Part shown: one piece after another, positions 3,393-6,730 of the stretch
Layout: every line of letters begins with the position of its first letter
Position numbering within the stretch: the first letter of the stretch is position 1
Virus record (IMG/VR): IMGVR_UViG_2681813154_000004
Length of the DNA: 37,535 nucleotides
From: a virus
Taxonomy: Duplodnaviria; Heunggongvirae; Uroviricota; Caudoviricetes
Reading direction: 5' to 3' (one strand)
The notes under the pieces: generated by a model
What the model was told of the DNA's origin: nothing
Database searches by the model: none
The model's input: only the letters and a program-made list of their open reading frames with translations
Translations under genes and position numbers: made by a program

Positions 3393-4067
3393 TTAGGCTT
3401 TGATTTTGTATCTTCTTGGTTTTCCTGAGAAAATCACTGTACCAATTATAGAGCAATTACCGTTGATCTTAATGTAAGGCTCAGGCCAGTTTGGGTTTAA
3501 CGCTTTGAGATAACGCTGTGTCCCATCTTCTATCAACCTTTTGAAGGTGGTTTCGCCTGTATCGTGCATCAATGCAATAACGTCGTCACCGTGGCAGGCA
3601 GGTACTTCAGGATCGACAAAAATCATGTCTCCCGGGCGGTACTCATCAATCATTGAATCACCTATCACCCGCAAGATATAAGTCATTTCCCCACAGGGTA
3701 CAGGGCAGGGATACGTTTCTGCTGTGCTCAAATCAACCTCAGAATATCCAACTTCTTTCCATGCTCCGGCCTGTACCCATGATATGACAGGGACTAATGT
3801 GATTTGTTTATTAGTGATTGAAACATCAGGTTTTTTTGTGATGTTCGTTGTCTGGTGTTCTTGATCGAGCCATCCGACAGGCAGGTCGAAACATTTTTCG
3901 ATGTGTCGTGCCATGCTGTCACCGATATTTTTAGTAGCACCATCTCCCATAAACCTGCTGGTCTGGGTTGGCTCGCGATCAATCATAGTGGCAAAGGAAG
4001 AATTCCCGCCAACACCATCTCTCAGTTTTCTGGCGTTAGACCGCCGGATGTCATGGATTGTTTTCAT
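3393..4067 (-). CDS. cI: CI-type prophage repressor, LexA/S24 peptidase family
   Basis: N-terminal HTH region, Ala-Gly cleavage site (VQAGAW), S24 Ser (GDSM) and Lys (TFKRL); divergent from the cro-like gene. Confidence 0.9.
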   Translation of the reverse strand: MKTIHDIRRSNARKLRDGVGGNSSFATMIDREPTQTSRFMGDGATKNIGDSMARHIEKCFDLPVGWLDQEHQTTNITKKPDVSITNKQITLVPVISWVQAGAWKEVGYSEVDLSTAETYPCPVPCGEMTYILRVIGDSMIDEYRPGDMIFVDPEVPACHGDDVIALMHDTGETTFKRLIEDGTQRYLKALNPNWPEPYIKINGNCSIIGTVIFSGKPRRYKIKA

Positions 4068-4157
4068 AACGAAATTAAAACCCTTGTACCGTTAAGGTAC
4101 AAGTATCTTGAAGGTTCATTTCAATCATGTAATATGTACACCGGAGGTACATATTGT
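4068..4157. promoter_or_regulatory. OR-like operator/promoter region (pRM leftward, pR rightward)
   Basis: 21-bp palindrome CTTGTACC-GTTAA-GGTACAAG (4083-4103); palindrome ATGTAC-N7-GTACAT (4134-4152); pR candidate TTGAAG (4108-4113) and TAATAT (4130-4135); TTTAAT -10 just upstream of the cI ATG. Confidence 0.6.
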
Positions 4158-4358
4158 ATGAAAGCGTATTGGGACTCTTTAACCAAAGAACAGCAGGGCG
4201 AGTTGGCCGGAAAAGTTGGCTCAACACCTGGCTACTTACGGCTGGTTTTCAATGGCTATAAAAAAGCCAGTTTTGTGCTGGCTAAAAAACTTGAGCAATG
4301 CACGTCAGGTGCAATTACGAAATCTGACTTAAGACCGGATATCTATCCGAAAGATTAG
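4158..4358 (+). CDS. cro: Cro-like HTH regulator (66 aa)
   Basis: ATG at 4158 with GGAGGT RBS; MKAYWDSLTKEQQGELAGKVGSTPGYLRLV...; divergent from cI across the operators. Confidence 0.75.
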   Translation: MKAYWDSLTKEQQGELAGKVGSTPGYLRLVFNGYKKASFVLAKKLEQCTSGAITKSDLRPDIYPKD

Positions 4359-4389
4359 CAGAACACTTTCAATTTTTAACCACAGAACG

Positions 4390-4953
4390 ATGAGGCTAAC
4401 CGTGGGTAAGCATCACTGGAAAATAGAAAAACAGCCTGAGTGGTACGTGAAAGCTGTCAGAAAAACTATCGCGGCGTTGCCGGGTGGTTACGCTGAAGCG
4501 GCTGACTGGCTCGATGTAACAGAAAACGCTTTATTCAACCGCCTTCGTGCAGATGGCGATCAGATTTTCCCGCTGGGATGGGCAATGGTTTTACAGCGTG
4601 CTGGTGGCACTCACTTCATTGCTGATGCTGTGGCGCAGTCTGCAAATGGCGTCTTTGTGTCTCTTCCTGACGTCGAGGATGTGGACAACGCCGATATCAA
4701 CCAACGCCTGCTGGAAGTCATTGAACAGATCGGCAGTTATTCAAAACAGATTCGTTCAGCAATTGAAGACGGTGTAGTGGAACCGCATGAGAAGACAGCA
4801 ATTAACGATGAGCTGTACCTCTCAATTTCGAAGCTGCAGGAGCATGCAGCACTGGTCTACAAAATCTTTTGCGTTTCAGAAAGTAGTGACGCCCGCGAGT
4901 GTGCAGCTCCGGGCGCCGTGGCGTGTCGTGACTGTGGAGAAACTAACGCATGA
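4390..4953 (+). CDS. CII-like early regulatory protein (YdaT / phage CP76 type)
   Basis: Position directly after cro; 187-aa ORF; family call from memory only. Confidence 0.5.
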
Positions 4954-5288
4954 ACAGTTTAACAACACACTACCGTCGCTCGCAACTGATTGCGCTTCCT
5001 GTACCGGGTGGAAAAGCGAAGGTGGAGTATTGCTATGCAGTAAATGTACTAGGTGACAGGGAAATTGTAACCCACAGCTTTGCAGAGTGGGCTGTGGGTG
5101 ATTTCAACCGGCAGAAGGAGACAGTCCTTTGCGACAAGTTAACCGCTGGTTCAAAGATCACTACGGAGTGCCCGTCAGAGTCATTCGTTGGGAGCCGGAA
5201 ACACAACGGGTTATCTACCTCCGTGAAGGCTATGAGCATGAGTGCTTCAGCCCGCTCGAACAGTTTCGTTGTAAATTCAGGGAAATAG
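4950..5288 (+). CDS. Hypothetical ORF (112 aa) with doubtful 3' half
   Basis: ATG overlaps the CII-like stop (ATGA coupling), but the C-terminal half is Ser-rich and low in complexity while another frame reads better. Confidence 0.35.
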
Positions 5289-5308
5289 AGGTCGGTCATG
5301 AGCACTAA
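5129..5308 (+). CDS. Hypothetical 59-aa protein in an alternative frame (just under the ORF-track cutoff)
   Basis: TTG start 9 nt after AAGGAG (5114-5119); reads [59 protein letters not shown]; stop overlaps the replication gene start. Confidence 0.45.
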
Positions 5309-6239
5309 ATTAACCGGCTATGTATGGGATGGTTGCGCTGCGTCAGGCATGAAATTATCCAGCGTGGCAATTATGGCCCGCCTGGCTGATTTCAGTAATG
5401 ACGAAGGTGTGTGCTGGCCATCAATTGAAACCATTGCCCGTCAGATTGGCGCGGGGATGAGTACCGTCAGAACGGCTATCGCACGGCTGGAAGCAGAAGG
5501 CTGGTTAACGCGTAAGGCGCGTCGCCAGGGTAACCGCAATGCGTCGAATGTTTATCAGCTTAACGTTGCGAAGCTTCAGGCAGCGGCATTTTCTCAACTG
5601 TCAGATTCTGACCCGTCAAAATCTGACGCATCAAAATCTGACCCGTCAAAATTTGATGCGTCGAAATCTGGCAAAAAAGCGGGTTTTCACCCGTCAGAAT
5701 CTGGCGGGGATCCGTCAGTAAAATCAAAACATGATCCGTCAGATAAAAAAACTTCTCGTCCGGACGCTTCGCAACCGGACACGCAGACGGCTGAACAGGA
5801 GTTTTTAACTCGCCATCCTGATGCGGTTGTATTCAGCCCTAAAAAGCGCCAGTGGGGAACGCAGGATGATTTGACCTGCGCACAGTGGCTCTGGAAAAAA
5901 ATCATCGCCCTGTACGAGCAGGCCGCCGAATGTGACGGCGAGGTGGTTCGTCCCAAAGAACCGAACTGGACAGCCTGGGCAAACGAAATTCGCCTGATGT
6001 GTGTGCAGGATGGTCGTACTCACAAACAAATCTGCGAGATGTACAGCCGCGTCAGCCGCGATCCGTTCTGGTGCCGTAACGTGCTCAGCCCGTCGAAGCT
6101 GCGGGAAAAATGGGATGAGCTTTCCCTGCGCTTATCGCCGTCCGTCAGCACGTACACAGAAAAACGCGAAGACCCGTACTTCAAAGCCAGTTACGACAAC
6201 GTGGACTACAGCCAGATCCCGGCAGGATTCAGGGGGTGA
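5298..6239 (+). CDS. Replication initiation protein, lambda O-like (YfdO-like), N-terminal HTH
   Basis: N-terminal winged-helix-like region, central SDxSK pentapeptide repeats encoded by tandem DNA repeats (iterons), position after cII. Confidence 0.8.
   Translation: MSTKLTGYVWDGCAASGMKLSSVAIMARLADFSNDEGVCWPSIETIARQIGAGMSTVRTAIARLEAEGWLTRKARRQGNRNASNVYQLNVAKLQAAAFSQLSDSDPSKSDASKSDPSKFDASKSGKKAGFHPSESGGDPSVKSKHDPSDKKTSRPDASQPDTQTAEQEFLTRHPDAVVFSPKKRQWGTQDDLTCAQWLWKKIIALYEQAAECDGEVVRPKEPNWTAWANEIRLMCVQDGRTHKQICEMYSRVSRDPFWCRNVLSPSKLREKWDELSLRLSPSVSTYTEKREDPYFKASYDNVDYSQIPAGFRG
5598..5750 (+). repeat. Candidate replication origin iterons (15-bp tandem repeats, core CCGTCAAAA) inside the replication gene
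   Basis: TCTGACCCGTCAAAA / TCTGACGCATCAAAA / TCTGACCCGTCAAAA / TTTGATGCGTCGAAA at 5607-5666, then degenerate CCGTCAGA copies and an A-rich tract. Confidence 0.55.
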
Positions 6240-6241
6240 TC

Positions 6242-6730
6242 ATGAGTCTTTTGAATGAAGTTCAGAAATACATTGAAGCCCATCCGGGCTGTACTTCCGG
6301 AGATATTGCGGATGCTTTTGCCGGTTACTCACGGCAGCGCGTTCTGCAGTCAGCAAGCAAGTTACGTCAGAGTGGGCGTGTGGCTCACCGTTGTGAAGGA
6401 GATACACGCAGACATTTCCCGCGCCTGACTGAGAGAGCGCAGGAACCGGAACCACAACCAGTTCGTGAAACCAGACCTGTGCGCAATTTCTATGTCGGCA
6501 CTAACGATCCCCGTGTGATTTTGTGCCTGACCCGCCAGGCGGAAGAACTGGAGTCCAGGGGCTTATACCGTCGTGCTGCAACGGTGTGGATGGCGGCATT
6601 CCGTGAAAGCCACTCCCAGCCAGAACGAAACAATTTTCTGGCGCGTCGTGAGCGGTGCTTACGGAAAAGCAGCAAGCGCGCTGCATCGGGTGAAGAGTGG
6701 TATCTGTCAGGGAATTACGTGGGGGCTTAA
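6242..6730 (+). CDS. Regulatory protein with PerC-like C-terminal region
   Basis: ATG at 6242 after AGGGGG; C-terminal LESRGLYRRAATVWMAAF...RERCLRKS resembles the PerC/Pch motif from memory. Confidence 0.5.
   Translation: MSLLNEVQKYIEAHPGCTSGDIADAFAGYSRQRVLQSASKLRQSGRVAHRCEGDTRRHFPRLTERAQEPEPQPVRETRPVRNFYVGTNDPRVILCLTRQAEELESRGLYRRAATVWMAAFRESHSQPERNNFLARRERCLRKSSKRAASGEEWYLSGNYVGA

Follow-up and report, generated by a model that had tools for sequence, protein, structure and literature searches.

The region between the CII-like gene and the replication gene of this phage holds two overlapping reading frames, and the question it raises is whether these encode two proteins or one protein assembled from both frames. 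The initial annotation had left both branches standing: either two small genes, or the N terminus of one frame fused to the C terminus of the other through a −1 shift, whether real or a sequencing indel. The window analyzed here is the whole stretch of phage DNA, 37,535 nt in length (IMG/VR record IMGVR_UViG_2681813154_000004), and it represents a lambdoid phage of the e14/SfII/SfIV type. Positions 4390 to 6300 are 98.4% identical to Shigella phage SfIV, and the segment from 4900 to 5350 was found in 2,606 of 5,426 complete Escherichia coli genomes, or about half. The gene order is a LexA-like repressor, a Cro-like gene, the CII-like gene ymfL, the region with the two frames, an O-like replication gene, and a PerC-like gene (Table 1).

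Table 1. Positions of the features discussed, in window coordinates
Feature	Position	Strand	Evidence or remarks
LexA-like repressor	3393-4067	-	
ymfL, CII-like regulator (Phage_CP76/NCBIfam YmfL family)	4402..4953	+	Pfam E = 1.4e-13; NCBIfam NF041471, 169.8 bits; PGAP coordinates
ymfM long ORF, 112 aa, stop TAG 5286-5288	4950..5288	+	Orthologue of K-12 e14 b1148; full-length phrog_1170 match
YmfM N-domain, ~60 aa, part conserved at the protein level	4950..5135	+	
TGA closing the DUF4222 frame upstream of its start	5099..5101	+	
AAGGAG Shine-Dalgarno for DUF4222, 8-nt spacer to TTG 5129	5115..5120	+	
DUF4222 gene within ymfM (59 aa from a TTG start; −1 frame with respect to ymfM; stop TAA 5306-5308)	5129..5308	+	PF13973
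YmfM tail, Ser/Thr-rich, predicted disordered, stop-free	5136..5285	+	
Junction TAG-AGGTCGGTC-ATG; ymfM stop abuts or overlaps the replication-gene GAGG Shine-Dalgarno	5286..5300	+	
Replication initiator, HTH_36 type, O-like	5298..6239	+	

Neighboring genes of the early operon overlap by 4 nt (GTGA or ATGA), at 4950 to 4953 and at 6236 to 6239. At the first of these sites the TGA stop of ymfL and the ATG of ymfM can be read directly from the shared ATGA, as expected from the initial annotation, which had coupled the long frame to the CII-like stop. Because successive genes overlap in this way, the whole ymfL-ymfM-replication gene-yfdN block appears to be packed for coupled translation. A search of Rfam returned no RNA element at E ≤ 1 across 4300 to 5500, and no internal sigma-70-like promoter was found in 3900 to 5600. 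Inside the replication gene, 5 to 6 tandem 15-nt units, TCAAAATCTGACNCG, lie at 5601 to 5675 (the family spans 5586 to 5708) and encode SKSD/PSKSD repeats; these units look like origin iterons, as in lambda O.

We asked what the long frame is. By nucleotide identity (98% over the 359 nt compared) and by its position after ymfK-ymfT-ymfL and before the replication gene, an order shared with K-12, it is orthologous to ymfM of the e14 prophage in E. coli K-12 (b1148, SfiC), whose annotation reads "cell division inhibitor YmfM". The initial annotation had missed this identity, and it had also missed that the frame is kept open by selection, which we take up below. The 112-aa frame has no family in Pfam or NCBIfam, and its PHROGs family, like that of the second frame, is of unknown function. 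ORF length in this frame is kept at 108 to 117 aa, and the two-frame layout dominates the clusters of its database proteins, one of which comprises 1,295 members of 112 aa. Shortened proteins also occur in the databases (88 aa and similar). We did not count these toward tolerated premature stops, since they all break off after "...HNGL" and derive from short contigs or from prophages that have been rearranged. Indeed, many chimeric or shortened proteins of this frame diverge right after "...RKHNGL" (window ~5213 to 5216), which suggests either contig ends or a junction, formed by deletion or recombination, that recurs in degenerate prophages. The copy in the window carries a rare variant of its own, Leu34 where nearly all relatives have Pro (T for C at 5050).

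The second frame encodes a different protein. It had been described as a 59-aa ORF that begins at a TTG preceded by AAGGAG, related to the long frame by a −1 shift and overlapping the start of the replication gene, and all of this holds. Its translation scores 67.4 bits against Pfam DUF4222 (E = 8.2 × 10−19; gathering cutoff, 27 bits), with residues 2 to 53 aligned to profile positions 3 to 52 of 53, and the ORF also matches phrog_1343. The frame is open only from 5102, and its stop lies 8 nt inside the replication gene. We collected 139 homologues across the Enterobacteriaceae (63 to 98% identity), and those that we aligned share the position of the start. In other genera an ATG start with a GGAGG-like Shine-Dalgarno sequence stands at the same place, and every locus examined has a Shine-Dalgarno sequence and start belonging to this gene. 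Its pN/pS is 0.17 (78 pairs of diverged sequences), and among 44 close haplotypes the variable sites of the overlap number 1, 0, and 10 at the first, second, and third positions of its codons, respectively. Together, these features identify the 59-aa frame as a real, conserved DUF4222 gene under strong purifying selection. An AlphaFold2 (AF2) model of the protein predicts a small beta-barrel of the SH3/Tudor/KOW/DUF1653 type (pLDDT 83), and structure comparison of this predicted fold gave no functional lead. None of the papers that we found to mention the family deals with its function or with this locus, and we found no description of DUF4222 sitting inside ymfM. The DUF4222 protein of this phage has a Cys at the nearly invariant Arg48 (T for C at 5270), again a rare variant.

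Unlike its tail, the first part of YmfM behaves as a protein. The segment ending in ...EWAVGDF shows amino acid conservation across many synonymous differences, and its pN/pS is ~0.55; the module evolves fast, and it too is a real gene. At least three divergent subtypes of this N-domain occur; the three compared all start with MNSL and are homologous by hhalign (96.5%, 90.6%, and 73% probability). A search of 1.8 billion proteins yielded just 48 representatives of this small family. The AF2 model of YmfM reaches a pLDDT of 63 to 73 over residues 11 to 60. The N-domain also occurs by itself: relatives have standalone proteins of 59 to 68 aa that lack the tail. In loci L121 and L122, a 59-aa N-domain lies between the CII-like gene, which it follows directly, and a KilA-N gene, and DUF4222 is absent. 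In loci L123 and L124, the CII-like gene is followed by the N-domain (62 to 67 aa), a KilA-N gene, DUF4222, and the replication gene, in that order; the two modules thus stand apart with KilA-N between them, indicating that they are independent proteins. Throughout, the N-domain follows the CII-like gene and DUF4222 abuts the replication gene. By phmmer, residues 11 to 50 of the N-domain (window 4980 to 5100) match repeat units of DUF7507 proteins (E = 9 × 10−13 to 3 × 10−4). The motif common to the N-domain and the repeats of these large proteins is LPVGGGDVTYCYAVDNTGDV, and the likeness may be merely a shared beta-hairpin motif.

In the window the replication ATG follows 9 nt after the ymfM stop and in the same frame. 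In each of 26 loci compared, a TAG or TAA ends the ymfM frame shortly ahead of the replication ATG, in the frame of the replication gene and beside its AGG/GAGG Shine-Dalgarno sequence. The distance is 9 nt in 23 of these loci, and no locus falls outside −18 to +11. In L109 and L114 the stop comes 8 nt past the ATG, and in L112 it comes 3 nt ahead of it. The layout of stop and start is that of a coupled junction in all 26 loci, and it is kept despite at least five unrelated N termini of the replication gene. The stop arises from an Ile codon of DUF4222, for which 36 of 36 sequences use the rare ATA. These observations indicate that selection fixes the end point of the ymfM frame at the start of the replication gene. 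The L114 locus of Entomohabitans teleogrylli (2501 to 2737) is a variant of the arrangement: a naturally occurring in-frame internal deletion removes most of DUF4222, leaving ...PVDHFRERFKRVDR, and the resulting N-domain ORF (78 aa, with a 15-residue tail) still ends 8 nt past the replication ATG.

Between the N-domain and this end point, the ymfM frame shows no sign of being selected for its amino acid sequence. The initial annotation had called the C-terminal half low complexity and Ser rich, and we found 31% Ser plus Thr, predicted disorder, and no constraint (pN/pS of 1.68 for the YmfM frame in the overlap; AF2 pLDDT below 50 over residues 68 to 112). If both frames were constrained, either protein-level conservation or reduced synonymous variability should be seen in the overlap; neither was found, and third positions of DUF4222 codons vary as much in the overlap (0.19) as third positions in the flanking genes (0.17 to 0.18). 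Only a compositional bias was detected. The tail thus shows no sequence constraint beyond what DUF4222 imposes on it. The frame is nevertheless open in 13 of 13 diverged lineages (11 clusters plus L109 and L112).

We propose that the locus is an out-of-frame nested gene pair in the early right operon with the ymfM tail serving as a bridge, and we consider this overall explanation likely. The ATG of ymfM is coupled to the stop of ymfL, and only the first ~60 residues behave as a selected domain. DUF4222 starts from its own AAGGAG and TTG inside ymfM and ends where the replication gene begins. Past the N-domain, ribosomes in the ymfM frame would read on through DUF4222 in its +1 frame, producing a disordered, Ser/Thr-rich tail of ~50 residues, and termination would always fall at the replication gene's ribosome-binding site. 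The tail would thus carry ribosomes over the nested gene, keeping ymfL, ymfM, and the replication gene coupled in that order and the mRNA covered by ribosomes. We infer that the tail is probably a translated read-through bridge for translational coupling. The case for coupling has a weak side: the replication gene has a good Shine-Dalgarno sequence of its own, and in the 59-aa variants the stop of DUF4222 abuts the replication start as well. We found no paper linking ymfM to ribosome profiling.

The main rival to the bridge is that YmfM has a function for its Ser/Thr-rich tail, a disordered region selected for composition and length, for example, as a degron, as a linker, or in division inhibition. 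Relative to shuffles of synonymous codons in which the frame had to stay open, the tail is enriched in Ser and Thr and depleted of aromatic residues in 11 of 11 lineages, and both the length of the ORF and the openness of its frame are preserved. A composition of this kind is also expected, however, if selection simply keeps a translated by-product harmless. Moreover, the amino acid sequence is free beyond the limits set by DUF4222. Relatives make do with N-domain proteins that lack the tail altogether, the Entomohabitans variant keeps just 15 residues of it, and the end point tracks the start of the replication gene rather than a fixed length. We therefore regard a function of the tail itself as unlikely and retain the bridge as the preferred reading.

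A second alternative is that codon choice left the long frame open by historical accident and to no selective effect, such that only DUF4222 and a short N-domain peptide matter. Open frames of this size do arise by chance: 9.4% of 53-codon windows in the real genes of the window have an open +1 frame. The antisense ORF 5033..5305(−), of 90 aa, is a case in point: it was considered as a gene and rejected as open purely by chance, since it keeps the register of the DUF4222 codons and only TTA, CTA, or TCA codons can close it, and it is open in most lineages. The number of lineages is harder to reconcile with accident. Given the DUF4222 protein and random synonymous codons, the exact probability of an open +1 frame is just 0.02 to 0.16 per sequence. 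The 11 clusters differ at ~30 to 80% of 4-fold sites (mostly 50 to 80%, near saturation), and the DUF4222 proteins of L109 and L112 are far more divergent in sequence. If the 13 open lineages were independent, the probability of all being open would be roughly 10−13 to 10−18, a figure that shared ancestry makes less extreme. Codon choice points the same way. Purine-ending Val, Leu, and Ile codons occur at 0 of 51 sites where they would risk a stop and at 17 of 48 safe sites, a signal resting on only ~5 codon pairs (Val/Leu), which is also the number at risk that makes an accident easier. Adjacent codons co-vary so as to avoid stops: at Val16, GTR (GTA or GTG) is used in 0 of 29 sequences in which the next codon begins with A, compared to 6 of 17 in which it begins with C. 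The rare ATA always makes the stop at the same position, and the +2 frame is shut right away, by a stop at +5 or +11 in nearly every locus. When DUF4222 stands alone, as in L123, its +1 frame contains at least 3 stops, although the standalone genes of L123 and L124 are very divergent in sequence and are not like-for-like controls. An accident is thus very improbable, and the data argue that selection holds the frame of the tail open and leaves its sequence free to drift.

The remaining alternative, the fusion branch of the initial annotation, did not survive. Of 104 loci, 102 have exactly this two-frame arrangement, as do thousands of database members, which rules out sequencing error, and the locus is best described as two separately initiated genes, both real; the hidden 59-aa gene and the odd C-terminal half of the initial annotation stand, and its single protein does not. 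A ~118-aa fusion of N-domain and DUF4222, made by programmed −1 frameshifting or by a sequencing or mutational indel, would suit the geometry of the frames, the SD-like AAGGAG in the overlap, and the rare fused proteins in the databases (P0151, P0175, P0181, and P0086), but it is largely refuted and in our judgment scarcely credible. No X_XXY_YYZ heptamer lies in the window overlap, where the initial annotation had seen no obvious one, and 3 of 11 lineages show only isolated, nonconserved matches. The downstream frame has a start of its own; in L017 and L028 a stop shuts the DUF4222 frame 6 and 3 nt ahead of its ATG, and L123 and L124 encode the two modules in separate genes. Nor would frameshifting account for the 50 further codons over which the zero frame remains open. 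The one fusion inspected as a possible true product (L120) was rejected; it traced to a 1-nt insertion in a run of G in a single Logan contig.

The nested arrangement bears on what is known of ymfM, which was linked after 35 years to the division-inhibition phenotype SfiC of E. coli K-12. In research on uropathogenic E. coli the gene serves as a tool and is targeted for deletion. Ansari et al. (10.1101/2020.11.19.390815) cloned the ymfM "open reading frame" in pBAD24 and deleted ymfM by lambda Red. The block of Z-ring formation and the filamentation tied to YmfM expression come solely from whole-ORF clones and deletions, the nested gene included, and earlier screens recovered fragments covering ymfL′-ymfM-ymfN′. 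The nested DUF4222 ORF is intact in K-12, and the K-12 ymfM ORF includes this AAGGAG and TTG along with 53 of the gene's 59 codons, which cover the whole region matched by Pfam. A ymfM clone carries the Shine-Dalgarno sequence and these 53 codons, and deletions remove both frames. Going by how the constructs are described, the filamentation credited to ymfM (SfiC) may therefore come from either product. That the tail is a bridge and also that the SOS-inducible division block is caused by DUF4222 or requires it seems doubtful as a joint reading. The papers on ymfM that we found make no mention of a nested gene; one further paper, on a ymfM knockout (Gut Microbes 2025), was set aside as irrelevant to the coding question.

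If a far better-conserved protein is indeed encoded within ymfM, the clones and knockouts in the papers that we found, all of them whole-ORF or whole-gene, are ambiguous, and the real division inhibitor and its target could be misassigned. The pair also poses a problem of annotation, since each set of records calls a different gene of it. RefSeq/PGAP calls DUF4222 alone and leaves 4954 to 5128 empty, and the records of K-12, SfIV, SfII, and PhiR29 call only the 112-aa ORF; no record that we examined annotates both genes. Individually, both ORFs are already in the databases (PGAP for DUF4222; phrog_1170, phrog_20047, and phrog_1343). What is new here is that they form a conserved, co-occurring pair, that the overlapping part of the outer gene is open without sequence constraint, and that the assignment of SfiC to YmfM is confounded. 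The locus offers a clean natural case of an alternative frame kept open without constraint on the protein sequence.

Comparison with known systems places the pair as follows. With ymfM of the K-12 e14 prophage it shares the gene and the gene order; the difference is that the literature and annotation of K-12 describe a single 112-aa protein where we predict two products. The DUF4222/phrog_1343 match of the inner ORF is full length, and RefSeq names it accordingly; its position inside ymfM is what this locus adds. Out-of-frame nested genes are already known in lambdoid phages. In lambda Rz/Rz1, one gene is embedded out of frame within another, and both frames are functional and constrained. As there, a small gene with its own start lies almost wholly within a longer gene in another frame. 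Unlike Rz/Rz1, the ymfM overlap is without sequence constraint, only its openness and end point being conserved, and the inner gene extends 20 nt beyond the outer one. Compact operons use termination-reinitiation coupling at gene junctions, for example, in the trp operon. The ymfL/ymfM, ymfM/replication gene, and DUF4222/replication gene junctions resemble these in that stop and start overlap or lie a few nucleotides apart, but the putative coupling here would need ~50 codons to be read in the alternative frame of another gene. Finally, dnaX and lambda G/GT are genes with programmed −1 frameshifts, and the present locus is like them in that its two frames overlap at a −1 offset close to an SD-like element. 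It differs in lacking a slippery heptamer and a conserved fusion, and in that the downstream frame has initiation signals of its own.
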